This document shows positions 1 to 30,212 of a DNA stretch of 32,000 nt, piece after piece. Each line of letters begins with the position of its first letter. The stretch's first letter is position 1. The position numbers and the translations under genes are program-made. Origin of the DNA: Candidatus Saccharimonadota bacterium (GTDB taxonomy: Bacteria > Bacteroidota > Bacteroidia > Cytophagales > Amoebophilaceae); assembly GCF_964030745.1 (NCBI RefSeq), contig NZ_OZ034918.1, positions 660,001 to 692,000 on the forward strand, read 5' to 3'. A model generated the notes under the pieces. That model saw only the letters and a list, made by a program, of their open reading frames with translations. It was not told where the DNA came from and searched no databases.

Positions 1-431
1 TGTTTTAAAGTTTTCGTACAAAGTTGGAAAAACGAGTTTCCTGCCATAGCCGTGAACGGGTATGCCCTCGGAAAAAAGTTGTGGCCCCACTCCTTGTAAA
101 TGGCTAACCCACTATCAGCCCTGCCTCTCCTTCGATAAAAAAATGGCGCTCTAGTAAAGGACTAACAGCTGAGCGATATGTTTTTCAGTGGATTAGAAAA
201 TCGTCTGTTTGAAGCCCGCTTGCGGGCTGAGTTCACGATTTTCCCGCTGAAAAACATATCGATTCAACTATTTACTATCGGGCCATACTTTTTATCGAAG
301 GAGACGCGGGGCGGGTACTTGGTCAGCTATTTGCTTTTTCAGAAAAACGTAATCACAGTGATGAATGGATACTCGTGAAAAGCTAGAAAAAACGTATTTT
401 CTGCCACAGTGGTGAATAGATACTATGGTAT
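1..431. repeat. Intergenic repeat island 1: mosaic of repeat modules, including a ~180-bp compound palindrome at 126-306
   Basis: 126-180 (tctccttcgataaaaaaatggcgctctagtaaa...cagctgagcgatatg) and 255-306 (catatcgattcaactatttact...tttatcgaaggagac) are inverted copies of one module (module B). The 74 bp between them is itself palindromic: tttttcagtgg/ccgctgaaaaa, gaaaatcgt/acgattttc, agcccgc/gcgggct. MITE-end-like motifs (..gtgaa.(a/g)g(a/g)tac) occur at 42-61, 357-375 and 403-421. The same modules recur at 4788-5316, 6999-7053 and 15005-15058. Confidence 0.75.
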
Positions 432-1073
432 CTATATCACACCACTTTTTTGGATAAAGTCAACAGCAATGGCTAAACCCTGGTTGTCTATCGAATGAGC
501 AAGGTTCTTGAGTTTATGCCCACTACATGGTACCTTTTGCTCAGCTAAATAAGCTATCGCATGGTCTACAGCACCTACCGCAACTACAGTATCTAACATG
601 CCATGAATCAAACAAATAGGTGTAGTCGTATTGATGGGTTGCGGAGGGGCTATCAATAGCCCAGAAAATCCTATAGTAGATAAGAAAGGCTCCGTCTGTA
701 TAAGTGTTAAATAGATAGCCAGCATAGCCCCCTGTGAGAAGCCAATCAGAATAGTATCTTTATTGGTAAGATTGAGCCCCATTTGTTTTTGTTTAATGAT
801 CTCTGTAACCGATGCTACATTACTGCCCAATAACCTTTTCATCACATAGGGCGTTCGATCTTGCAGGCTAAACCATTGCCGCCCATGAGCAGCCATATCA
901 TATGGCTCTACCCCATGTGGCGCCATAAAATGGCAGTCCGGTAAATCATCTTGGATATATGGAACCAATTTGATTAAATCATGCCCATTAGAGCCGACAC
1001 CATGTAATAATACTACTAACTTTTTTGCGGGTAGCATTTTACTATGTACCTCAGGATGTATTAAATTGCTCAT
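432..1073 (-). CDS. Alpha/beta hydrolase of the phospholipase/carboxylesterase family
   Basis: The ORF runs 432..1121. It has the nucleophile elbow GFSQGA, the N-terminal [11 protein letters not shown] and later HGMLDTVV and AHSID, giving a Ser-Asp-His layout typical of Abhydrolase_2 esterases. I moved the start to Met17 (MSNLIHPEV) because the maximal ORF overlaps the divergent nth gene. 1121 is the maximal start. Confidence 0.75.
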
Positions 1074-1127
1074 TATTGATCTGCTATTATTGTAAACTTG
1101 TCCACAACTCGTGCTCATCAATATATC

Positions 1128-4621: not shown

Positions 4622-4694
4622 GCCTCCTTAGCTCAACTGGCAGAGCAACTGATTTGTAATCAGTAGGTTGCTGGTTCGATTCCGGCAGGGGGCA
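4622..4694 (+). tRNA. tRNA-Thr (anticodon UGU)
   Basis: Hand-folded cloverleaf: acceptor GCCTCCT/AGGGGGC, D arm GCTC..GAGC, anticodon arm ACTGA-TTTGTAA-TCAGT (anticodon TGT), T arm GCTGG-TTCGATT-CCGGC, discriminator A. 73 nt, no encoded CCA. Confidence 0.9.
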
Positions 4695-5316
4695 CTTGTG
4701 CTGCTTAAAATTTTCCATTTTTTACCGAGGGCTTGAATTTTTGTCCACTTTGTTTATTAACAAATAAGTGGACAAAAATTCATTTTTCAGCTATTTACTT
4801 ATCGGGCCAGACTGTTTATCGAAGGAGATAATGGGCCGAGCCACAGGTGTGAATAGATACGTATATTTGTTCAATGCATCTAATCCAACGTGTGATACTT
4901 TAACAGAAGTGAGACATTTTTCTTTTCCATTTTAGGCAGGTTAGGCTATGGAAAAATAGGCTCGTGTACTATCCCAGCACATTATCTTATGCCCGTTAAT
5001 CTTACGAGTTTTATTGTCCATCATCCCACATAATCTACTATAATTTTATATTTTTATAAATCACTTTTTGTAGCGTTTCTGTTGAAACTTCACACATAAT
5101 TGGCTATTTGGCGCATTATTTATTTCCCGTTTTAACCATTTAAAAAAAATTGTATTGGGCAAACTGTCTAACCACTCTTTTGTATCCTTGTCTGGAGTAC
5201 TATGGAGACTAGTATCATTAATAGGACGATTAAGGTCATGGGTATGTAAAATGATGAGTTATGTTTATCTCCTTCGATAAAAAGTCTGGTCCGATAGTAA
5301 ATAGCTGAATCGATAT
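4695..5316. repeat. Intergenic repeat island 2 next to tRNA-Thr: truncated MITE relative, a perfect 15-bp-stem hairpin, and inverted module-B copies flanking 435 bp
   Basis: 4700-4860 matches the hairpin-to-TIR part of the 249-bp MITE in reverse orientation (ttttaccgagggcttgaattttt..., ending ccacaggtgtgaatagatac at 4860). The hairpin is aatttttgtccactt (4736-4750) paired with aagtggacaaaaatt (4766-4780). Module B at 4788-4830 and its reverse complement at 5266-5306 are near-identical inverted copies. Confidence 0.7.
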
Positions 5317-6620
5317 GAGGCCGTTGTGATAGGTTGAAGGTATAATTTTGATTAATCTTCCAGGGTTATTTCCTTGCCATATTTGATGTTATAGTGGTAT
5401 AAAACTATTTATTTACTGATTTTTTAGTCATTTTCAATCTATTTTGGACACACCATTCCCCTAGATACCTCTTAATATGATGTTTGGGGACCTATATAAG
5501 TTATAGGCTATTGCCTCCATAACATGTTGCGTATGGGTTTTAGCAAGGCCTATATATCTGGCTCCTGAGCTACGGAACCAACTTTTAATACTTCCAAATA
5601 CCCGTTCTACTTTATAGCGCGTTTTAGATACTAATTTATTAAACCGTTTAGCAGTGGGTGATAAAGGATTGTTTCTAGCCCCTTTTTTCTGAATAGCTGA
5701 TTTTAACTTCTTTTTCTTTAGTAAATTTTCGTTGGGCGACCCGCTATAGCCTTTATCTGCATAGAGTCTGCTGCCTGATTTTAGCCTTACTTTATCCAAT
5801 AATACCTGTAAATGCCCACTATCATGACTAGATGCTTTTGTGGTACCTACGGCTAGCACCAACCCCTCTTTGCTTTCCACAAGAACATGCCGCTTATAGC
5901 CATAGTAGAGATGATGGCCTTTTTTTATCCAACTTGCTTCTGGATCTACTCCTTTTTGATAACTTTCAGCTGTGGTTATGGTTCCATCTTCATGCAGATC
6001 GTAGCTTTTTTTACCTTTAGGGCGTCTAGGGGTAGGGGTAATAGAAGCATCTACAGCTGCTGAACCGTTTTGAACCAATACACCATGATCAGATAGCTGA
6101 TTATTAATGATATGCAATAACTTTTCTAAAGCATTCTTCTCTGTAAGGGTAGTTCTAAATCTACTTAGTACACTATGATCTGGAACAGAACTATCCATCG
6201 AAATACCACAAAATCTGCTAAAAGTGATACGATCATTCACTTCTTCTTCGACTGCATAGTCGCTCAAGCCATACCACGTCTGTAGCAATAGCATTTTGAA
6301 TAGAAGCAGAGGACTATAGGCCGGTTTGCCTGATAAACGTAAACCTTTAGGATAATGTAATCGGAGTGCTTTTTCTACTACTGACCAATTAACTAGCTTG
6401 TTGATTTGATCAAAGAAAGTGTGTTTGCACTTACGCTTATTGGCGGAAATATCTGAAAAACTTAATTGCTTAGTTTGCTTGAGCGACATACACAATATTA
6501 TTAAAAGTTTTAAGCATCAATACCTAAAAAAATCAATAGAATTTAACCTTTTTTTACCTTCTTCTAAAAAATAAAAAGATACTTTTTATGGCAAATCGTA
6601 AAGGTCTATTGCAACGGCCT
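5317..6620 (-). mobile_element. Intact IS5-family insertion sequence (~1.3 kb)
   Basis: The terminal inverted repeats are AGGCCGTTGTGATAGG (5317-) and the reverse complement of tctattgcaacggcct (-6620), matching at 13/16. The flanking direct repeat is cgatatg (5310-5316 and 6621-6627); the TSD length is ambiguous at 5-7 bp because the terminal g/c can extend the TIR. A single full-length transposase ORF lies inside. Confidence 0.85.
5461..6495 (-). CDS. IS5-family DDE transposase (InsH-like N-terminal domain plus DDE_Tnp_1)
   Basis: 344 aa. It has the N-terminal LLFKMLLLQTWYGLSDYAVEEEVNDRITFSRFCGI (DUF772/InsH-like), the DDE-region motif YADKGYSG, and the C-terminal RYKVERVFGSIKSWF typical of IS5 transposases. 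There is no frameshift or internal stop. Confidence 0.9.
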   Translation of the reverse strand: MCMSLKQTKQLSFSDISANKRKCKHTFFDQINKLVNWSVVEKALRLHYPKGLRLSGKPAYSPLLLFKMLLLQTWYGLSDYAVEEEVNDRITFSRFCGISMDSSVPDHSVLSRFRTTLTEKNALEKLLHIINNQLSDHGVLVQNGSAAVDASITPTPRRPKGKKSYDLHEDGTITTAESYQKGVDPEASWIKKGHHLYYGYKRHVLVESKEGLVLAVGTTKASSHDSGHLQVLLDKVRLKSGSRLYADKGYSGSPNENLLKKKKLKSAIQKKGARNNPLSPTAKRFNKLVSKTRYKVERVFGSIKSWFRSSGARYIGLAKTHTQHVMEAIAYNLYRSPNIILRGI

Positions 6621-6681
6621 CGATATGTTAATATCGAATTTTCGTCCACTTCTTTATCAAGAAAAAAGTGGACGAAAACTC

Positions 6682-6930
6682 GTATCTATTCACGTCACTG
6701 GTTAATAATGAATTGTATTCCACTTTTTTCTTGATAAAAAAGTGGACAAAAAATCAAGCCCTCGGCAAAAAGTTCCGGAAGCCACCCCTTACAGATGGAA
6801 AAACAGAAGTCGCCCGCTGCGCGGGCTTCAAAGGAATCTGTTTTTCCCAATCATCTGCAAGGGGTGGCTTCTATTTCGAAACTTTTTACAGGGGCATTTT
6901 ATCACTATGGCCATAGTGTTGAACAGATAC
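6682..6930 (+). mobile_element. 249-bp MITE-like non-autonomous element, copy R1
   Basis: The ends are GTATCTATTCAC... and ...GTTGAACAGATAC, imperfect terminal inverted repeats with core GTATCT(A/G)TTCA. A perfect 8-bp direct repeat GAAAACTC flanks it at 6674-6681 and 6931-6938. No credible ORF is present. It is 246/249 identical, by hand alignment, to the inverted copy at 15079-15327. Confidence 0.8.
6778..6871. repeat. 94-nt interrupted palindrome inside MITE copy R1
   Basis: Paired segments are gaagccacccctt/aaggggtggcttc (13 bp), cagatg/catctg, aaaaacaga/tctgttttt, and the apical gcccgc-tgc-gcgggc. About 34 bp are paired in total. The same structure is found at 15138-15231 and 15415-15508. 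Confidence 0.8.
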
Positions 6931-7079
6931 GAAAACTCAAGCCCTGGGCAAAAAGTTGGGGCATTTTACTACTATGACTATAGCGTTGAACGCATACCCA
7001 TATCGTTCAGCTGTTAGTGTTTTACTAGAGGGCCATTTTTTATCGAAGGAGACGCGGGGGCTGGTATTTGGTTAGCTAT

Positions 7080-7991
7080 TTACTTTTTTGCCTCTGTTTC
7101 CGGTTTTTTATTCTGAGTTGGTGTAGGTGGATGTTGTATTAAGCTTATTTCATTTCGCAATTTACCAGCATATTTGTTGCCTATCTCCTTTTTATGCTGT
7201 AGCGTTCCTATTTCCTTATCAATTTCCTTGAAATCAGTTTCTTGTAAGCTCTCTTTTACAATACCTAGGATATATTTAAACATTTTAAGGTTAGCATTAG
7301 ACCCGAAAAGTCCTGGCTCTGGTAGATAGGCAGATGCAAATACAGAATGGTCTTTTTTATCTTTTTGAAAGAGGCTTTGACGAGCCGCATCCTTGTTTTG
7401 ATCTTGAGTCTTGGTTGGATCTTGAGTCAATAGTTTATTCCATATTAGGCTAAATGCTTGTTCTCTATTGCAAATAGCAGCCATATGTAGCGGGCTTCTT
7501 TTTTCGTTATCTACACTAGTAACGTCAATGTGTGTACTTGATACTAAGGCGCTAACTATTAGAATATCTCCCATTTCTATAGATTTGGTAAGAGGTGTTT
7601 TACCGCTTGATTCGTCAGGTAAATTTTGAAAATTCTCATTTTTATGTTTTATATTTCTCTCTGTATCATTAACCAAACGTTGTAAAACAATTTTCACCTT
7701 TTCTAAAATTCCGGAAAGTACTGTAGCGTATAGCAAGGAACGCGGTTTATGCTTGTCTTTGCTTGGAACTAATAGGCTAATATCTGTCGTATTATCTACT
7801 ATTACCTGGAAATTCTGTGGACTTGGTTGCATTGCCATGAAATCTGACGTCTGCATATCCAATAGCCTAGCAGCCCCTCCTCTACAAGTATATGCGTGCA
7901 AAACAGCTAATAAAGATAAAATAGTCGTTCCTTGTACCAAAAAGGAATGCCGCTTGGTATGCCTCTTTAATTTTCTTATTTCCTTAAACAT
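7080..7991 (-). CDS. Ankyrin-repeat protein with N-terminal signal/anchor; short paralog of the 518-aa protein
   Basis: 303 aa. After a basic start comes the hydrophobic segment TTILSLLAVLHAYTC-RGGAA. ANK-like units include GKTPLTKSIEMGDILIVSALV and EKRSPLHMAAICNREQAFSLIWNKLL. The C-terminal module LKMFKYILGIVKESLQETDFKEIDKEI...NKYAGKLRNEI plus a Pro/Lys tail is shared with ORF 9929..11485. Confidence 0.75.
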   Translation of the reverse strand: MFKEIRKLKRHTKRHSFLVQGTTILSLLAVLHAYTCRGGAARLLDMQTSDFMAMQPSPQNFQVIVDNTTDISLLVPSKDKHKPRSLLYATVLSGILEKVKIVLQRLVNDTERNIKHKNENFQNLPDESSGKTPLTKSIEMGDILIVSALVSSTHIDVTSVDNEKRSPLHMAAICNREQAFSLIWNKLLTQDPTKTQDQNKDAARQSLFQKDKKDHSVFASAYLPEPGLFGSNANLKMFKYILGIVKESLQETDFKEIDKEIGTLQHKKEIGNKYAGKLRNEISLIQHPPTPTQNKKPETEAKK

Positions 7992-8719: not shown

Positions 8720-9619
8720 CTATGCAAAATATTCGATTTGAGATCGAGACAAACCAGTAAGTGCAGCTATGTCATCTATAGGGTAACCCTTTAGCAGCAT
8801 AGCCTTAGCTATAGCAAGGGCTTTATCCCTTTCTCCCTCTAGCTTTCCTTCTAGTTTGCCCTCTAGTTTGCCCTCTAGCTTACCTTCATTTCTGGCTTTC
8901 TCTAGTGTATTTGCTTCTATTCTCCACCATTTCAAGTGGTCTTCATAAGCCATTCTTTCCTCATCGGTAAAGTTCATGGTCTCTAAAACATGCAATGCCT
9001 TTTTTAGGCTGTCGTTATTCAAGGGTTCAGGTAAGTTATCTTTGTTGAGGAGGTCGTTTCGGGTAAGAAAAGCAGTCCAAATGTCTAGTGCGTTTTTTAT
9101 CTTTGTCAATAATGTTTTTAGATCTTCATTAGGATCGTTACTGAATTTAATCAGCTCTATGGTATGCAATTCTAGGTCTGTAAAGTAGGGTAGGCCGCTC
9201 TCTTGTTCTGTGATATGAAATATATTGTGATATTTGTTACTATGCGGTATAGAAGTAAAATTAAGAATATGAATGCCTATTGCTTTGTGTAAACTGGAAT
9301 AGGTCTGAGAAGCTTTTAGTTGCTCTGTATATAACTTGGCCCAGTAATATAATGCGCGTTTGTCGTAATCTGCTTCATCAGAGATTTGGATCTCTATATT
9401 AAACCTTTTTCCTGTTTCACCTACTGCTTTTATATCTAATATAGATAGCTTATCACTTCTAAAATTTTTTGGGTTATAGGGGTTCAATAGAGTAAGATCT
9501 ACCACTTGATCTTCTGGTAAAACAGTAGCATTTATTAAGGAAATCAGTAGATCCTTATTTTCTTCTACACCAAAGATTTTTTTGAACGCTAAATCTATTT
9601 TAGGGGTAATTTTTTCCAT
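8720..9619 (-). CDS. Rpn-family (YhgA-like, TIGR01784-type) PD-(D/E)XK recombination-promoting nuclease / putative transposase
   Basis: 299 aa. The N-terminus is the family-typical MEKITPKIDLAFKKIFGVEENKDLLISLINA. The nuclease core is LSILD(62)IKA...FNIE(76)IQ(78)IS...YDKRALYYWAKLY. The C-terminus has a helix-turn-helix-like motif, AIAKAMLLKGYPIDDIAALTGLSRSQIE. Confidence 0.85.
   Translation of the reverse strand: MEKITPKIDLAFKKIFGVEENKDLLISLINATVLPEDQVVDLTLLNPYNPKNFRSDKLSILDIKAVGETGKRFNIEIQISDEADYDKRALYYWAKLYTEQLKASQTYSSLHKAIGIHILNFTSIPHSNKYHNIFHITEQESGLPYFTDLELHTIELIKFSNDPNEDLKTLLTKIKNALDIWTAFLTRNDLLNKDNLPEPLNNDSLKKALHVLETMNFTDEERMAYEDHLKWWRIEANTLEKARNEGKLEGKLEGKLEGKLEGERDKALAIAKAMLLKGYPIDDIAALTGLSRSQIEYFA
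8834..8884 (-). repeat. In-frame 12-nt tandem repeat encoding G(KLEG)x4 in the Rpn-like gene
   Basis: The plus strand reads ccctctagcttt ccttctagtttg ccctctagtttg ccctctagctta cc. The translation is NEGKLEGKLEGKLEGKLEGERD, located between the nuclease body and the C-terminal HTH-like module. Confidence 0.9.
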
Positions 9620-9928: not shown

Positions 9929-11485
9929 TTAACCAGCTTGGGCTTTTTGTAACTGGGTAGAGTGCTCAGTTGACTCAGCTTCCTTTTGATCAGGAAGGGG
10001 TCTTGACGGTACTGATGGTACTGATGATGTTGACTTTATTATGTTGCGCAATTTAGTAGCGTATTGCGTACTAATTCCGCCTTTTATCCTAGGTGTAACT
10101 TCTCGTTCCTTAATTTTGTTTAAAATAACTTTCTCGATATCCTGCCACTCCTTTTGTGGTAGGATACTCTTTATAACTTCTATAGCGTCCTTAAACATTT
10201 TAATATTAGTGCCAGTAATAGCGGGTTCTGTACTAAGTTTGGATAAGTAGATATACTCCCACATAGATTTCTTACCTGCAGTTGGTGACCCAAAAAGTTC
10301 CTTTAGCTTGCCCTGTACGTTATCTTTATCTTCCTTAGCTAGTACGCTTAGACGGTCCAATATTGCTTTAAATGCCTCTTCCTTATTGTGAGAAACAATT
10401 GTATGTACTAACTTTTGGTCTATTTTTTCTAGAGGTAATTCCTTGATCAATTTGGGTACATTTGACTGGTCATATAGGATGCCTATATCTATGGCAGATC
10501 TGCCTTTATTATCCTTTATCCATAGCTTCTCTTTTTGGTTATGCTGCAAAGCTAGCTCAATTAATTTACCTTGTATGTATCCTTGTTTATACTTCATAGC
10601 TGAATGCAATGCTGTTTTCCCATCTTTATTTTGTGCAAATAAAAATTCTAGCGATTTGTCCTTAAAACTCTCATGAGTAGGACTTTGAGAATCCAAAACT
10701 TTTTCAATGCATTGAATTAATTTTTCTTGTACAGCTTTTTGTTTGTGTCTTACCGCTAAATGCAGAGCTGTGTCCTCATTGGTTTTATTTTTTGTAGATA
10801 ATAGCCCATACTCCTGCTTATTAAATAACCGATTAATAAATTCAAGTGCTATATTCTCCCACTTATTTTCAATGGCCAAATGTAAGACTGTATTACCTGA
10901 AATTGGATCTATAACCGTGATATTAATCTCATCAACAGCTATTGTACTTAACAATTTGGTAACCATTTTGAGTTGCTTATGTGCAAGCGCTGATAAAATC
11001 GAGGTAGGGTTTTTTCCTTGTGGCGTCCCTGCTTTATTAATATGAATGCCTTCTTGGGTAATTAAAAGGTCAAATCCGAATTCATAACCTTTCTCTATAG
11101 ATATTCCAATGGGTGTTTTTTGACTTTTTGGGTCAATTGCGTTGAGTGCTTTTTTAAAATTTCCCTTAAAATTTGTATCTTGTTTATTATCGTTATAGAA
11201 CTTTAAAAACATTAACAATTTCGTATCCTCCTTGTTCTCTACCAGAACGTAGAGTAGGCTCCGCCCAGTTTTATCCTTAAAAATAGCGGTACTCCCCTTT
11301 TCGAACTTTTCTTTTAGCTTGTCAGGGAAAGTTTCAATTGGCGTCATTGCCACATAATACGCTGCTCCGCGTTGGTTCCACCCGCGGCAGCCCTCCGCGC
11401 CTTGCAAAACAACCGATAACGACAACACCGCAATCCCTTTTGCCAATAGACTCGATCGTTTACCATTTACATTAAAGTATTTCAT
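9929..11485 (-). CDS. Ankyrin-repeat protein with N-terminal signal/anchor; long paralog
   Basis: 518 aa. The hydrophobic N-terminus is GIAVLSLSVVLQGAEGC-RGWNQRGAA. At least four clear ANK units are present: GNTVLHLAIENKWENIALEFINRL, NEDTALHLAVRHKQKAVQEKLIQ, DGKTALHSAMKYKQGYIQGKLIE and KGRSAIDIGILYDQSNVPKLIKEL. The C-terminal module IKMFKDAIEVIKSILPQKEWQDIEKVI...TQYATKLRNII plus a Pro/Ser tail is shared with ORF 7080..7991. Confidence 0.85.
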   Translation of the reverse strand: MKYFNVNGKRSSLLAKGIAVLSLSVVLQGAEGCRGWNQRGAAYYVAMTPIETFPDKLKEKFEKGSTAIFKDKTGRSLLYVLVENKEDTKLLMFLKFYNDNKQDTNFKGNFKKALNAIDPKSQKTPIGISIEKGYEFGFDLLITQEGIHINKAGTPQGKNPTSILSALAHKQLKMVTKLLSTIAVDEINITVIDPISGNTVLHLAIENKWENIALEFINRLFNKQEYGLLSTKNKTNEDTALHLAVRHKQKAVQEKLIQCIEKVLDSQSPTHESFKDKSLEFLFAQNKDGKTALHSAMKYKQGYIQGKLIELALQHNQKEKLWIKDNKGRSAIDIGILYDQSNVPKLIKELPLEKIDQKLVHTIVSHNKEEAFKAILDRLSVLAKEDKDNVQGKLKELFGSPTAGKKSMWEYIYLSKLSTEPAITGTNIKMFKDAIEVIKSILPQKEWQDIEKVILNKIKEREVTPRIKGGISTQYATKLRNIIKSTSSVPSVPSRPLPDQKEAESTEHSTQLQKAQAG

Positions 11486-14893: not shown

Positions 14894-15078
14894 TCGCCCG
14901 ATGCGCGGGCTTCAAAGGAAAATTTACTTTTCTGCCGTATTCATTCATCACTATGGCTACGTTTTTCTGAAAAAAGAAATGGCTGACCAATTATCAGCTC
15001 CTTATCTCCTTCGATAAAAAATGGCGCTCTAGTAAAACACGAACAGCTGAGCGATATGTTTTTTAGCGGATTAGAAAA

Positions 15079-15327
15079 GTATCTGTTCAACACTATGGCC
15101 ATAGTGATAAAATGCCCCTGTAAAAAGTTTCGAAATAGAAGCCACCCCTTGCAGATGATTGGGAAAAACAGATTCCTTTGAAGCCCGCGCAGCGGGCGAC
15201 TTCTGTTTTTCCATCTGTAAGGGATGGGTTCCGGAACTTTTTGCCGAGGGCTTGATTTTTTGCCCACTTTTTTATCAAGAAAAAAGTGGAATACAATTCA
15301 TTATTAACCAGTGACGTGAATAGATAC
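15079..15327 (-). mobile_element. 249-bp MITE-like element, copy 1 (inverted relative to R1)
   Basis: Its reverse complement differs from 6682-6930 at only 3 positions. One is in the hairpin flank and two are in the left palindrome arm. Its flanks (ttagaaaa / aaaaaatt) do not form a clean TSD. Confidence 0.75.
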
Positions 15328-15355
15328 AAAAAATTGGTGTGCAGTAAAAAAAATG

Positions 15356-15604
15356 GTATGCGTTCAACGCTATGGCCATAGTAGTAAAATGCCCCTGTAA
15401 AAAGTTTCGAAATAGAACCCATCCCTTGCAGATGATTAGGAAAAACAGATTCCTTTGAAGCCCGCGTAGCGGGCGACTTCTGTTTTTCCATCTGTAAGGG
15501 ATGGGTTCCGGAACTTTTTGCCGAGGGCTTGATTTTTTGCCCACTTTTTTATCAAGAAAAAAGTGGAATAAAATTCATTATTAACCAGTGACGTGAATAG
15601 ATAC
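15356..15604 (-). mobile_element. 249-bp MITE-like element, copy 2
   Basis: Same length and architecture as the other copies. A perfect 8-bp direct repeat AAAAAATG flanks it at 15348-15355 and 15605-15612. Both palindrome arms carry the alternative variant (gaacccatccctt / aagggatgggttc) and pair perfectly. Confidence 0.8.
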
Positions 15605-15611
15605 AAAAAAT

Positions 15612-15641
15612 GAACCGATCTGTTGAAAAACAGATCGGTTC
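15612..15641 (-). terminator. Rho-independent terminator of the ATP/ADP translocase gene
   Basis: A perfect 13-bp stem, gaaccgatctgtt / aacagatcggttc, with a 4-nt loop lies 86 nt downstream of the minus-strand stop at 15727. On the minus strand it is followed by attttttg. Confidence 0.7.
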
Positions 15642-26271: not shown

Positions 26272-27507
26272 ATGGCTATGCGTTTTGGTATTGCTCGGTT
26301 GAGCTATTTTTTTGCATTATTTGCTTTGGTATGGATTACAGCTTATGGTAAACGTCATCCTACTAGCGCCCGCCCAAGTAAAAAAAGTTTGACCACAGGG
26401 CGTCTTTTTAATCAACCAGATACCCTTGCCGTGGTCCCCGTTAAGGGTGAGTCGCCTATTCCAGGTATGATCTATGTAGAAGGGGGCTATATGATCATGG
26501 GCAATTTAAGCGAAGATAAGCTTGGTACTGGAGGGTGTTGCGCCAAGCCGGTTACGGTAACTTCTTTTTATATGGACCAAACGCCTATTACCAATTTGGA
26601 TTATAGAGAGTATTTGGATGATTTGCGAAAGAGTGGTTTGATGGAAGCATATAATGCTGCTATGCCCAATCAGAAGGTTTTTGTAGAGGATTTTAGCTAT
26701 AATGACCCTTTAACAGATCAAGATAGTTACTTCAATATGCCTGACTTTATGTATTACCCTGTTGTGGGTGTAAGTTGGGAGCAAGCTACAGCATATTGCA
26801 AGTGGCGCACTAAAAAGATACAGGAGCTCATTAAGCAGAAAGGCAAAGGCAAAGGCAAAGCAGGTTCAGCTGGCCAGACTGATACCGGTTATGTCAGTGA
26901 TGAAGATCAGAAAAAGCCTGTAGATCAAGACAATAGTGAGCCAATCGTACAGGGGCTTCCTGTAGTGCGTTTGGCTACCGAAGCAGAATGGGAATATGCT
27001 GCGCGTGGCATAGTGGGGACAGTGAGTATAGACTATTTGCAACGCCATCAGCGCACTTATCCTTGGGATGGCTCTTCGCCAAGGGGAAAAAATGGTCAAT
27101 TTTTAGCTAATTTTAAAAGAGGCAGAGGTAATTATAAAGGTGTAACTGGCGCCTCTGACCATGCGGCACCTACTTCTTATGTATATGCTTATCCTCCAAA
27201 TGATCTGGGCCTTTATGATATGGTGGGCAATGTTTGTTGTTGGGTAAGTGATACTTATAGACCACTTTCCTTGCAAGATACCAGTGATTTAAATCCTATT
27301 AGGCGGGATGGACGGTTGGACCCTGCTAGCAGCTACAATGCTACCGATAAAGTCTCCCTTATCAATGATGATGCTAGAGTATATAAGGGGTGCTCTTGGG
27401 CTGATTCTGCCTATTTTTTACAAATAGGTACCCGACGCTATTTGAATAAAGATGCTGCTTCAGCTAGAATTGGATTTCGATGTGTAGTGTCTAGCTTGGG
27501 GCGATAA
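26272..27507 (+). CDS. FGE-sulfatase (SUMF1) domain protein, GldJ/GldK-like (gliding/T9SS-associated family)
   Basis: 411 aa. It has PGMIYVEGGYMIMGN, FYMDQTPITNLDYREYL, YYPVVGVSWEQATAYCKWRT, RLATEAEWEYAARG, LYDMVGNVCCWVSD and IGFRCV. The domain is split by a low-complexity insert, KGKGKGKAGSAGQTDTGYVSDEDQKKP. It has an N-terminal hydrophobic anchor but no lipobox Cys. Confidence 0.65.
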   Translation: MAMRFGIARLSYFFALFALVWITAYGKRHPTSARPSKKSLTTGRLFNQPDTLAVVPVKGESPIPGMIYVEGGYMIMGNLSEDKLGTGGCCAKPVTVTSFYMDQTPITNLDYREYLDDLRKSGLMEAYNAAMPNQKVFVEDFSYNDPLTDQDSYFNMPDFMYYPVVGVSWEQATAYCKWRTKKIQELIKQKGKGKGKAGSAGQTDTGYVSDEDQKKPVDQDNSEPIVQGLPVVRLATEAEWEYAARGIVGTVSIDYLQRHQRTYPWDGSSPRGKNGQFLANFKRGRGNYKGVTGASDHAAPTSYVYAYPPNDLGLYDMVGNVCCWVSDTYRPLSLQDTSDLNPIRRDGRLDPASSYNATDKVSLINDDARVYKGCSWADSAYFLQIGTRRYLNKDAASARIGFRCVVSSLGR

Positions 27508-27530
27508 TAAACTGCTTGTGCAACTCGTTG

Positions 27531-28223
27531 TTATGCCTCTACTACAGCTATGGTTGCAACGCTTACTTTTGCTATACCTGCTGTTAAAAGTGCATCGGTG
27601 CAGGCTGTTAATGTAGCTCCTGTAGTCAGAATATCATCTACAAGCAGAAGATGTTTGTCTGCTAGTAAAGCGGGTTGTATTACTTTAAAAGCGCCTGCTA
27701 GATTGGCCATGCGTTCTATTTTATTTTTAGTGGTTTGCGATGGCGTATAGCGGATCCGTTCTACACATTTTGTATGCAAGGGGAGGTTCAATGCAGCAGA
27801 AAGTCCCTTTGCAAAAAAATCACTTTGATTGTAACCCCGTTCTTTGAATCTCTTCGGGTGTAAAGGAATGGCTACAATTCCATCAATGGTTTCCATAATT
27901 GGTGCCTGATGGAGGATATTGCCATAGTGCCATCCTAGCATCTCTCCAATTTTGGGTTGGTTTTTATACTTCATCGCAAAAAGCACCCGTTCGAGGTGGC
28001 TCTGCTTTCTTAACTTGTACAGGGCAAATCCATAGGTTATGGTTGTTTTACCTAGAAAATGGTTGGTGATGGCATTATCTACCAATGTATGCGCATTTGT
28101 TTCTGGAAATGAACTAAAACAAATGGTGCAAATCAATGTTTCTCCTTGTACAAGCTTGTGGTTGCACCCTACGCATATGGGAGGGAAAAGCAAATCCAAT
28201 AGTCCGGTTATAAATCGTTTCAT
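27531..28223 (-). CDS. comF: ComF-family protein (phosphoribosyltransferase domain)
   Basis: It has the N-terminal zinc-ribbon Cys pairs CVGC...CTIC and the PRTase motif LLLVDDILTTGATL. Confidence 0.85.
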   Translation of the reverse strand: MKRFITGLLDLLFPPICVGCNHKLVQGETLICTICFSSFPETNAHTLVDNAITNHFLGKTTITYGFALYKLRKQSHLERVLFAMKYKNQPKIGEMLGWHYGNILHQAPIMETIDGIVAIPLHPKRFKERGYNQSDFFAKGLSAALNLPLHTKCVERIRYTPSQTTKNKIERMANLAGAFKVIQPALLADKHLLLVDDILTTGATLTACTDALLTAGIAKVSVATIAVVEA

Positions 28224-28342
28224 GGTATATGCAGGATCACTTTACATGGCTTGATAACATCGTTTTTGTATTTTTGTAATTTCGGTAGTCTTATTCATTT
28301 AACCAATGGTGTTAATTTAAGAAAAAACGCTATATTTTTTTT

Positions 28343-29605
28343 ATGCTCGATAGAACCATTCCACCACAGTTTCAGGAGATTGAACCCATCCGTTTTCCAT
28401 GGCCAAAGCGGCATATGTTGGGCAATGACATTCCGCTGTATGTCCTTGATATGGGTAGTCAACCCATTATAGAGTTAGAGTTGATTTTTAAATCGGGTAG
28501 TTGCCATGAGTTGCATCCAGGTGCAGCTTATTTTACCGCTGCTATGCTACTTGAAGGTACTGCAACCAAAACCTCTCAAGATATTGCCCATATGATCGAC
28601 TATTATGGTGCAACCATTGGTACACGTGTACAAAAAGACTTTTGCATCATCTCTCTTTCTACACTTGTTAAGCACCTTAATCCCTTGCTAGATTTATTGG
28701 TCGAGCTACTATTAACCGCTAGTTTTCCTGAAAAATCACTCCAATTGCTAAAAAATGTAAAAACGCAAGCCATTCAGATGGCCGATAAAAAAAACCATCA
28801 GGTAGCCTATAAGCGGTTTTGTACAGCACTTTTTACAGCAGCACATCCGTATGGAAGGCATTTAACCGTGCAAGAGATTGCAGCCATTCAACGAAGCGAT
28901 TTACAACACCATTATGAACAATTGTTGTTTACTGGCTGTGCTGCTTTTGTAAGTGGACAAGTGACTCCAGCTGCCTTACAATCCATTCAACAAGCCCTAG
29001 AACAGTTAACTGTAACAAAAGTTGTACAACCAGATCAAATCCCATCTGGCAATCTTCCTGAAAAAATAGATATAGCCGATGGGCAACACTTGCAATCTGC
29101 TATTGTAATTGGTAAAAAGTTATTGCTTAAAAAGGAAGCAGATTTTTTACCTATGGTGGTAGTCAATACGCTTTTAGGGGGATATTTCGGTTCTCGGTTG
29201 ATGCGGAATATTCGAGAAGATAAAGGCTACACCTATGGCATCCATTCCAATATGGTTGCTTTATTACAAGCTGGTTATCTGTCTATTACTACAGAAGTAG
29301 CCCAAGAAGTGACACAGGCAACCATCCAAGAAATCTATAAGGAAATAGCAATATTGCAACATGAACTTGTTGCAGAGGACGCTTTACAGAATGTTAAAAA
29401 TTACCTCCTAGGCCATTTTTTAACCACAATCAATGATCCCTTTTCCATCATGCAAAAGTTTCAGGCAGCCTACTTGCATGGTTTGGATCAAAGTTATTAT
29501 ACTGCATTTTACCATCAGGTTCGTGACATAACTCCTCTAGAAGTTAGAAACTTAGCACAAAAATACTTATCTTTAGATTCCTTTACAGAAGTAGTTGTGC
29601 GTTGA
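28343..29605 (+). CDS. M16 (pitrilysin/insulinase) family homolog, predicted non-catalytic
   Basis: 420 aa. The position of the HxxEH zinc motif (..G.AHFLEHM.FKGT) reads GAAYFTAAMLLEGT, so H, E and H are all replaced. The C-terminal half carries the M16 second-domain pattern, GGYFGSRLMRNIREDKGYTYGI. Confidence 0.8.
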   Translation: MLDRTIPPQFQEIEPIRFPWPKRHMLGNDIPLYVLDMGSQPIIELELIFKSGSCHELHPGAAYFTAAMLLEGTATKTSQDIAHMIDYYGATIGTRVQKDFCIISLSTLVKHLNPLLDLLVELLLTASFPEKSLQLLKNVKTQAIQMADKKNHQVAYKRFCTALFTAAHPYGRHLTVQEIAAIQRSDLQHHYEQLLFTGCAAFVSGQVTPAALQSIQQALEQLTVTKVVQPDQIPSGNLPEKIDIADGQHLQSAIVIGKKLLLKKEADFLPMVVVNTLLGGYFGSRLMRNIREDKGYTYGIHSNMVALLQAGYLSITTEVAQEVTQATIQEIYKEIAILQHELVAEDALQNVKNYLLGHFLTTINDPFSIMQKFQAAYLHGLDQSYYTAFYHQVRDITPLEVRNLAQKYLSLDSFTEVVVR

Positions 29606-29661
29606 TGCACCTGACTGTATAAGATGAGGCGTTGCCCTATAGCGCTTCCTTTCCTCTTTAA

Positions 29662-29693
29662 TTTGCATTTGATGCAATAAGAGGGTATATTTG
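29662..29693 (+). promoter_or_regulatory. Candidate Bacteroidota promoter (-33 TTTG, 20-nt spacer, -7 TATATTTG) for rplM-rpsI-rpsB-tsf
   Basis: TTTG lies at 29662-29665 and TATATTTG at 29686-29693, about 70 nt upstream of the rplM GTG start. Confidence 0.4.
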
Positions 29694-29762
29694 AAGCCTT
29701 TAGTTTTTTTGTATACGGTCCTCAAAATTTTTTTGTTGGTTCAACTTTTTCTTTAAAAAAGC

Positions 29763-30212
29763 GTGGATTCTATTAGTTATAAAACAAAATATGCTAACAA
29801 GCAGAGCGTTAACAAGCAATGGGTTGTTGTTGATGCTTCATTTCAGCCATTGGGTAGGTTTGCTAGCCAGCTTGCTTACCTCATTCGTGGAAAGCATAAG
29901 CCTGATTTTACGCCTCATGTGGATGGGGGAGACCATGTTATTGTCTTGAATGCGGATAAAATAGCTTTATCGGGTAATAAATCGGTTAAAAAAACCTATA
30001 CCACTTATTCCGGTTATCCTGGGGGGTTAAAGCGTGCTACGCTTCAGGAAGTTCAAGCTATTAGTCCTAGGCGTGTAATAGAGCGTGCTGTAAAAGGTAT
30101 GTTGCCTAAAAATAGATTGGGAAGAAGGTTGTTTCACAATCTACATGTTTGTCAGGGGGATATTCATCCATATGCAGCTCAAAAGCCAACCCCAATAACC
30201 CTAAAATACTAA
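29763..30212 (+). CDS. rplM: 50S ribosomal protein L13 (GTG start)
   Basis: (M)DSISYKTKYANK...WVVVDAS.QPLGRFASQLAYLIRGKHKPDFTPHVDGGDHVIVLNADKI matches the Bacteroidota-type L13 N-terminus MDxxSYKT. Confidence 0.95.
   Translation: MDSISYKTKYANKQSVNKQWVVVDASFQPLGRFASQLAYLIRGKHKPDFTPHVDGGDHVIVLNADKIALSGNKSVKKTYTTYSGYPGGLKRATLQEVQAISPRRVIERAVKGMLPKNRLGRRLFHNLHVCQGDIHPYAAQKPTPITLKY

Follow-up and report, generated by a model that had tools for sequence, protein, structure and literature searches.

A 249-bp repeat with 8-bp target duplications is very probably a MITE of a superfamily spread through arthropod-associated Cardinium

A non-coding unit of 249 bp occurs three times in a 32-kb window (the whole stretch of DNA analysed, 32,000 nucleotides), and one of its copies, R1, lies inside a related sequence. 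This arrangement raises the question of whether the unit is a mobile element, how far it has spread, and which enzyme might move it. The MutS protein of the window shares 83% identity with its counterpart in Cardinium sp. TP (host Tyrophagus putrescentiae), 81% with C. hertigii cEina3, 73% with the Tipula unca Cardinium and 62-64% with Amoebophilaceae. Other genes encode a TLC ATP/ADP translocase, ankyrin and RING-finger proteins, a DUF3127 protein, an Rpn-type PD-(D/E)XK protein and an IS5 transposase, a gene set that indicates an obligately intracellular member of the Bacteroidota. Based on the MutS identities and the gene content, the source of the window is a Cardinium (Amoebophilaceae) endosymbiont.

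Direct reading, a repeat finder and alignment all recover the three units, each exactly 249 bp long and 95-99% identical to the others, at the positions given in an earlier note on this DNA. Together with at least five fragments, they make up the window's content of this repeat family. The full copies and two of the fragments are:

6682-6930, plus strand: R1, full-length copy of the presumed MITE, 99% identical to copy 1 and 95% to copy 2
15079-15327, minus strand: copy 1, full-length 249-bp copy without a target duplication (repeat finder, alignment)
15356-15604, minus strand: copy 2, full-length 249-bp copy with one degenerate terminus (GTATGCGTTCA), 95-96% identical to R1 and copy 1
18084-18165, plus strand: family fragment covering the side-hairpin region, between the AhpC and DUF3127 genes (blastn; nhmmer E 1e-10; also in Logan contig L001)
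14892-14955, plus strand: fragment with the apex hairpin motif GCGCGGGCTTCAAAGGA and the terminus-like GTATTCATTCA (blastn 96.6% over 29 nt; nhmmer E 2e-4)

The units share the ends GTATCT(A/G)TTCA and TGAA(C/T)AGATAC, which had been described as inverted repeats of each other. This description holds for R1, whose termini GTATCTATTCA and TGAACAGATAC pair at 10 of 11 positions, but less well for copy 2, whose end at 15356 has two mismatches to the terminal motif. With at most one mismatch, the terminal 11-mer occurs nine times in the window against 1.07 expected, a count that none of 100 shuffles reaches. Between the 11-12-nt terminal inverted repeats (GTATCTRTTCAc), the interior is almost wholly one long imperfect palindrome with a side hairpin. 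No frame is open from end to end and no Pfam domain is found, leaving the element without coding capacity; its longest ORF matches only hypothetical ORFs called over other copies. Alignment shows that similarity between R1 and copies 1 and 2 ends exactly at the termini, with unrelated flanks beyond. The reported near-identity of R1 and copy 1 was also confirmed, as the two differ at three sites, and since copy 1 has the base of copy 2 at all three, it is apparently the nearest of the copies to the source sequence. A short-read contig from another sample stops 22 nt into copy 2, as expected of a multi-copy repeat.

The most direct sign of transposition lies just outside the ends. Perfect 8-bp repeats had been noted at two of the three units, and both can be read directly from the sequence:

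6674-6681, unstranded: left 8-bp target-site duplication of R1 (GAAAACTC), identical to 6931-6938
6931-6938, unstranded: right 8-bp target-site duplication of R1 (GAAAACTC), 8/8
15348-15355, unstranded: 8-bp target-site duplication of copy 2 (AAAAAATG), 8/8 with 15605-15612
15605-15612, unstranded: second duplication of copy 2 (AAAAAATG), comprising the T-tract and the last two stem bases of a terminator-like hairpin downstream of the TLC gene

Copy 1 is bounded by TTAGAAAA and AAAAAATT, which match at 3/8 positions and form no duplication. For a broader comparison, terminus-like motifs were paired at 40-320 bp spacing in the window and in Cardinium loci, and the 8 bases outside each end were compared. 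These bases match at 6-8 of 8 positions in 10 of roughly 20 elements, while none of 28 shifted controls reaches 6/8; mean flank identity is 4.0/8, compared with 1.6/8 in controls shifted outward by 8 bp. The calculated chance of a match of at least 6/8 is about 1% per element at the present base composition. Four elements match at 8/8 (R1, copy 2, and one each in L088 and L090), three at 7/8 and three at 6/8. Those outside the window are:

8/8: copy on the D. farinae Cardinium plasmid, L088 17607-17868, CAAACTGA
8/8: 218-bp element in cOegib, L090 19302-19519, ATATGTGT
7/8: cTPut L083 3006-3127, TTTTAGCT / TTTTACCT
7/8: cTPut L083 11852-11954, TAAAAATG / AAAAAATG
7/8: cSfur L086 19757-20012, TATGTCCG / TATCTCCG
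6/8: cTPut L002 6066-6306, L002 9485-9744 and L083 3382-3606

Because flank matches stand far above the shifted controls, the fixed 8-bp duplication is a property of the family. Like copy 1, several copies in other genomes have no recognisable duplication. Several of the duplicated targets are A/T-rich, and variants of AAAAAATG recur among them.

Six further Cardinium lineages have relatives bounded by these termini, all at unrelated loci: those of the hosts Sogatella, Tyrophagus, Bemisia, Oedothorax and Brevipalpus, and one represented by a plasmid from Dermatophagoides. Several search routes led to them. Loci fetched around MutS contained related copies in Cardinium sp. TP, and a spurious ORF running through the element, used as a protein query, retrieved "hypothetical proteins" lying over copies in cSfur, cTPut and cByotN1. 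A profile of those spurious ORFs then found further copies in cBtQ1, cOegib and cByotB1, and blastn of plasmids located one more, on the 33.8-kb plasmid carried by the Cardinium of Dermatophagoides farinae. The strain names of the two Brevipalpus assemblies follow a 2025 Cardinium review. The loci with relatives are:

cSfur: L082, L086
cTPut: L002, L083
cByotN1: L087
cByotB1: L092
cBtQ1: L091
cOegib: L090
D. farinae Cardinium plasmid: L088

These relatives are full-length or nearly so and 74-83% identical to R1 (blastn; measured in cSfur, cTPut and cByotN1), and blastn, alignment and an nhmmer profile agree that similarity among them begins and ends at the same terminal motif. In cSfur, cTPut and cByotN1, each locus of 8-20 kb contains three to nine nhmmer hits, whose flanks all differ; extrapolated from samples of 16-40 kb, copy number would be on the order of 100 per genome in cSfur and cTPut. 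Consistent termini are found beyond the window in all six other lineages, and many of the copies have flanking duplications that are perfect or near-perfect over 8 bp, as the earlier note's MITE reading required. Nor is the unit embedded in one larger repeated segment, since its flanks differ at every locus in the related genomes.

The same ends bound elements of 59, 62, 92, 103, 122, 218, 225 and 241-262 bp, and even the short derivatives of 59-122 bp carry the ends of the full-length elements. The 249-bp element belongs to a superfamily with modular interiors. In four samples of sequence nhmmer gave no family member: a 17-kb stretch of cEina3, 22.6 kb from the Cardinium of Tipula, 49 kb from Amoebophilus-like genomes and 50 kb of the cEper1 plasmid pCher. 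A gapped family-wide pattern had no matches in metagenome and viral contig collections. Between tRNA-Gly and tRNA-Leu, cTPut has a 241-bp copy (L002 6066-6306) where the window has an empty 31-bp spacer, a comparison between species too diverged to align the empty site cleanly; three cTPut assemblies compared with one another revealed no occupied/empty polymorphism. Exact look-ups of the neighbouring Ank and semiSWEET proteins, aimed at a strain with the empty site, returned no record.

The 249-bp unit is thus very probably a non-autonomous DNA transposon (MITE) within a superfamily that has spread through arthropod-associated Cardinium. A putative transposase encoded elsewhere in the genome would bind both ends, excise or copy the element, and insert it at a staggered 8-bp cut, whose repair would leave the 8-bp duplication. 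Such mobilisation in trans would be the work of a DDE-type enzyme. The 99% identical copies and the perfect duplications indicate that the family has recently been active in this strain. R1 would have come recently from a source resembling copy 1 and entered an older related element, which was also hit by IS5; copy 1 would have lost its duplication, probably through an adjacent deletion.

The older element around R1 can be partly rebuilt. When R1 and one GAAAACTC are removed, 6628-6681 joins 6939-6998 to give a sequence collinear with two stretches of R1, at about 19-93 and about 210-249 (blastn/alignment). The proposal that R1 inserted into an older relative is upheld in this respect. The parts involved are:

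5268-5317, plus strand: left part of the older host ('B module'), cut off by IS5; joins 6628 once IS5 and one CGATATG are removed
5318-6620, minus strand: IS5-family insertion sequence splitting the older host; ORF 5461-6495, Pfam DDE_Tnp_1 and DUF772
6628-6681, plus strand: middle part of the older host, side hairpin GTCCACTTCTTTATCAAGAAAAAAGTGGAC with flanks; collinear with R1 about 19-74, 78-85% identical
6939-6998, plus strand: right part of the older host, with degenerate terminus ...GTTGAACGCATAC; matches R1 65-93 and about 210-249, and the copy 2 end at 95%
4700-4860, minus strand: composite relative whose terminus at 4850-4860 reads GTATCTATTCA; it also contains the side hairpin and a B module (nhmmer E 6e-13 over 4685-4791)

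The IS5 is flanked by CGATATG at 5311-5317 and 6621-6627. A repeat finder places the B module (TCTCCTTCGATAAAAA...CGATATG) at 138-180, 255-304, 4800-4831, 5268-5317, 6999-7052 and 15005-15058, and its end is a degenerate version of the MITE terminus. With R1, IS5 and one duplication of each removed, the reconstructed host consists of the B module, the side hairpin, AAGCCCTGGGCAAAAAGTT and the right end ...GTTGAACGCATAC. About 135 nt of this reconstruction can be aligned with the composite element at 4700-4860, with which 6628-6681 is also collinear. In this host, however, the central hairpin of some 115 bp is missing and the 5' module differs from that of R1, so the host represents another subfamily and not an older copy of the R1 element. 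As reconstructed, the host of R1 would be a member of the related composite sister subfamily that has been split twice, by IS5 and by R1.

Copy 2 has a different setting. Downstream of the TLC gene, on the minus strand, a terminator-like hairpin of 14 pairs (15642-15611) is followed by TTTTTT and then by the end of copy 2. On the TLC strand, the duplication of copy 2 reads CATTTTTT, the last two stem bases plus the T-tract. Copy 2 would accordingly have entered the T-tract of this hairpin, and because the duplication spans both stem bases and T-tract, the terminator-like hairpin and its T-tract would have been regenerated on insertion. The apex hairpin of the MITE with its T-rich tail itself scores as terminator-like. 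A few cases hint, weakly, at a preference for T-tracts such as those that follow terminators.

Folding analysis describes R1 as a long hairpin with a side hairpin, at -97 kcal/mol on the plus strand (z -8.7) and -115 kcal/mol on the opposite strand (z -13.6). RNAalifold applied to 14 copies from six lineages predicts 46 pairs, with 95% of cells paired compared with 46-57% in controls whose partners were slid by 1-3 columns, and both-sided changes affect 11 pairs versus 2-6 in these controls. When both strands are folded, the strand opposite R1(+) folds better in 11 of the 14 copies; this two-strand folding replaced a count of G-T versus A-C pairs (46 vs 11), which is biased by the strand used for prediction. 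The both-sided changes group into few lineage-level events, and for that reason they are read as evidence for maintenance of the palindrome and are not taken to prove selection at the RNA level; palindrome-templated repair could account for them instead of selection. With Rfam 15, only three tRNAs in the window pass the gathering score and the element is unmatched. Both-sided change is clearest at the apex, where the window, cBtQ1 and cByot carry GCCCGC...GCGGGC, versus GCCCCC...GGGGGC in cSfur and cTPut. The 24-nt apex motif of the window had no matches in genome and metagenome contig collections.

Such a stable fold invites the alternative that the unit is a structured RNA element or regulatory hairpin, for instance a transcript-stabilising or transcript-terminating 3' element, kept by RNA-level selection and with mobility secondary or extinct. 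The z-scores of both strands, a fold retained across lineages with both-sided pair changes, the recurrent strand bias, the terminator-like apex with its T-rich tail, and the position of copies in intergenic DNA beside gene ends would all fit this explanation. Yet perfect 8-bp duplications and terminal inverted repeats are marks of DNA transposition, not of RNA genes, and copies lie in both orientations to their neighbours, even between divergent genes (L083 10012-10267). A permissive Rfam scan of the element returned only miRNA-hairpin matches far below threshold. This alternative is accordingly considered improbable.

The dominance of hairpins is also what a REP/BIME-like palindrome would show if it were moved by a RAYT or an IS200/IS605-type HUH transposase that reads hairpins and not ends. 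Family members do cluster head-to-tail in shared intergenic regions in a BIME-like manner (window 1-430; cTPut L002 6835-7075), and IS200-group elements are present in the sister genus Amoebophilus (PMC3196728). HUH transposases, however, make no target-site duplications, whereas here a fixed 8-bp duplication recurs in several genomes; the elements measure 60-260 bp and have true terminal inverted repeats, and neither the window nor the fetched loci contain a RAYT or IS200 gene, which leaves this mechanism very improbable. Segmental or tandem duplication with gene conversion might instead have produced the copies in the window, as copies 1 and 2 are only 28 bp apart, their shared repeat extends beyond the element by 7 nt (AAAAAAT), copy 1 is without a duplication, and just three sites separate it from R1. 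It is equally remote and largely refuted, since similarity of R1 to the other copies stops at the termini, R1 and copy 2 each carry a perfect duplication of a different target, and copies elsewhere sit at unrelated loci with duplications of their own. Transposition of a MITE remains by far the better account of the repeat.

The source of the transposase was sought in the window and in about 300 kb of Cardinium loci and plasmids, where no autonomous element with the MITE ends was found. Transposase-like genes in the window are limited to the IS5-family gene and the Rpn-type PD-(D/E)XK gene (8720-9619). The former has unrelated ends and the latter lacks matching ones, with no inverted repeats around it related to those of the MITE, which bears out the earlier view that the mobilising transposase is not encoded here. 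The following insertion sequence ends were compared:

Window IS5: AGGCCGTTG..., no match to MITE ends
ISCca4/IS982 and MITECca01: ACCTAAGTTCGGGATT / ACGTGAATTCGGGATT, no match to MITE ends
ISCca2-like IS6 on pCher: GGYTCTGTCGCATCTGTA, no match to MITE ends
IS256 in cOegib (L090): TTAAGTGTRTAAAT, no match to MITE ends

Elements of the IS1, IS66, IS256, ISL3, IS1595 and ISAs1 groups also make 8-bp duplications, and IS66 ends begin with GTAA, nearest to the GTAT of the MITE, which makes this group a possible lead. IS256 is excluded as parent by the ends read in cOegib L090. Tn3-family elements make 5-bp duplications, a size that excludes the Tn3 transposase on the D. farinae plasmid as mobiliser. 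Two 328-aa ORFs that adjoin copies (L082, L087) were considered as a shared transposase; they are mutually unrelated and match no family. IS6/IS26 resembles the MITE in its 8-bp duplication, its terminal repeats of about 12-14 nt containing TCTGT, and its abundance in Cardinium, where ISCca2 of this family measures 834 bp and makes an 8-bp duplication (PMC6807381). The IS6/IS26 consensus GGTTCTGTTGCAAA, however, has G1, G2 and G7 in all but one member, whereas the MITE has T2, A/G7 and C10, and only about half of the first 12 positions agree between the ISCca2-like pCher end and the MITE. The ends of the pCher copies (GGYTCTGTCGCATC) and the family consensus rule out IS6/ISCca2 as parent.

Rpn-type PD-(D/E)XK genes, like the one at 8720-9619, have multiplied on Cardinium chromosomes and plasmids. 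It is conceivable, but improbable, that the mobiliser is an unrecognised enzyme outside the catalogued Cardinium insertion sequences, such as these Rpn-type 'putative transposases'. If this were true, the MITEs would provide the first defined DNA substrate, with ends and an 8-bp duplication, for an enigmatic protein family. In a milder variant, likewise improbable, the conserved, strand-biased hairpin would have been co-opted as an RNA-level regulatory module.

Small non-coding elements of 100-250 bp whose whole length forms a hairpin are known from other bacteria, including the Correia elements (CREE/NEMIS) of Neisseria, the enterobacterial ERIC/IRU and the pneumococcal RUP. They lie between genes, vary in size and may influence how transcripts terminate or how stable they are. 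Correia and RUP insertions duplicate TA, and their ends are different. The family described here has an 8-bp duplication and shares no sequence similarity with Correia, ERIC or RUP elements (no Rfam match). The Rickettsia palindromic elements (RPE) are likewise palindromic selfish repeats that proliferated in a reduced obligate intracellular genome, but they are known for inserting in frame into protein-coding genes, and neither terminal repeats nor target duplications are clear in them. Unlike RPEs, to which they have no sequence relation, the elements here are intergenic with clear repeats and duplications.

Cardinium itself has a counterpart. MITECca01 and MITECca02 of cOegib are IS982-derived, present in 169 copies and reported absent from other strains (Halter et al. 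2022, PMC9769881), and MITECca01 has been reported as the first MITE of a maternally transmitted endosymbiont (PMC9769881). Like the 249-bp family, they are found in Cardinium, are of similar length (about 240 bp), code for nothing, have terminal inverted repeats, lie between genes in many copies and have inserted into other mobile elements. Their ends, however, are unrelated: MITECca01, derived from ISCca4/IS982, carries ACGTGAATTCGGGATT as its terminal repeat (then AGMTTGTW), compared with GTATCTRTTCAC here, and the MITECca01 end has no match in the window at up to two mismatches. The published ends exclude the 249-bp repeat from being MITECca01. MITECca01 is reported as specific to cOegib and has an identified parent; for the 249-bp family no parent was found, and its members are present in seven or more Cardinium lineages, cOegib among them.

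In the searchable literature, MITECca01/02 of cOegib are the only MITEs described for Cardinium, and a search with the terminal 11-mer returned unrelated primers only. The cSfur paper limited its repeat analysis to sequences of at least 500 bp, the 2025 Cardinium review does not mention MITEs, and in the cTPut paper "MITE" denotes transposase fragments. Since these Cardinium papers do not cover it, the 249-bp MITE family is regarded as undescribed in the searchable literature, while the kind of element is familiar and the known workings of MITEs stay unchanged.

The family extends Cardinium MITEs beyond the lineage-specific, IS982-derived MITECca01 and indicates that an older MITE family exists across arthropod-associated Cardinium (group A in the literature). 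It also has practical consequences for these repeat-rich genomes, which are hard to assemble and annotate. The family breaks short-read contigs, and several deposited genomes list its copies as "hypothetical proteins" (P0001, P0003-P0005, P0007-P0009), an annotation that could be cleaned up with a defined consensus. Recent activity is indicated by perfect duplications in three genomes, in one case on a plasmid, and occupied and empty sites are possible strain markers.

Several further repeats in the window resemble the 249-bp MITE at their ends. In the second palindromic repeat type, two B modules (repeated segments that end in a degenerate MITE terminus) face each other in inverted orientation, and its outer ends, ATATCGATTCA and GTATTCATTCA, are similar to the MITE terminus. 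These repeats and the genes that concern us here lie as follows.

98-332: second palindromic repeat type, two inverted B modules around the apex hairpin GCCCGCTTGCGGGC
14927-15078: half copy of the same type
1-63, 333-372 and 373-423: third subfamily, represented by clustered fragments of its right end, ...CTGCCAYAG..GTGAAYRGRTAY
432-1121, minus strand: Abhydrolase_2 gene
5318-6620: IS5-family element with its transposase gene at 5461-6495, minus strand
8720-9619, minus strand: Rpn-type PD-(D/E)XK 'putative transposase' gene (PDDEXK_2, E 6e-59)

MITE copy 1 adjoins the half copy precisely where the apex would be expected, an arrangement that may account for its missing target duplication, for example through an adjacent deletion. 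Next to the third-subfamily fragments, 419-432 holds the junction GATAC-TATG-GTATC, where the terminus-like sequence GTATCTATATCAC and the Abhydrolase_2 gene (at its 3' end) overlap.

On both sides of the IS5-family element stands the 7-bp sequence CGATATG as a perfect direct repeat (5311-6627 with the repeats included). The usual target duplication of IS5-group elements is 4 bp; either the true ends lie 1-2 bases further out (GAGGCC...), or this duplication is of atypical length. Around the Rpn-type gene, no terminal repeats are recognisable; annotated paralogues are carried by pCher and by the D. farinae plasmid, the two Cardinium plasmids that were examined. Eukaryote-like candidate effector genes also occur in the window, at 7080-7991, 9929-11485 and 21210-21926, encoding two ankyrin-repeat proteins and one RING-finger (zf-RING_2) protein.

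Alignment of 14 family copies from six lineages revealed a strand asymmetry: in 11 of them, the strand complementary to R1(+) gives the more stable fold, by 10-20 kcal/mol. On the basis of these modelled folds, the hairpin could be relevant as RNA or as single-stranded DNA of one strand, or the asymmetry could be a plain effect of base composition.

Beyond the window, related elements occur on a plasmid and in other Cardinium genomes.

L088 (D. farinae Cardinium plasmid CP101109) 17607-17868: 262-bp family member, perfect duplication CAAACTGA
L090 (cOegib, OW441264) 19302-19519: 218-bp element with MITE-family ends and a different interior, perfect 8-bp duplication ATATGTGT
L090 10061-10263: second family copy in cOegib, annotated as hypothetical protein CAOEGIBSW744_0442

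The plasmid copy, immediately downstream of an HD-domain gene, offers a possible path of between-strain spread. The same plasmid encodes an 878-aa Tn3-family transposase ORF (27306-29942), which the PLSDB gene table lacks. Mini-elements with MITE-family ends, 59-122 bp long, are packed head-to-tail in cTPut (L002 6835-7075; L083 3006-3606 and 4246-4304). Those of L002 lie downstream of a tRNA-Leu gene, in the presumed counterpart of the window's semiSWEET-TLC intergenic region, which is the site of copies 1 and 2; some intergenic regions may be recurrent landing sites.

The cOegib genome that holds the 218-bp element was manually curated, and the available text of its genome paper names MITECca01 and MITECca02 as the only MITEs (PMC9769881). 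In cOegib, an IS256-family transposase gene is split by an element (L090 17494-17735) whose ends, ACGTGAGTTCGGGATT ... AATCCCGAACTCACGT, are those published for MITECca01; this agrees with the reported inactivation of other mobile elements by MITECca01.

Finally, a Logan contig from the public short-read run SRR15069915 encodes a TLC protein identical to that of the window, and the same organism was therefore present in that sample. The contig ends at window position 15583, 22 nt within copy 2; the MITE repeat therefore breaks that assembly.
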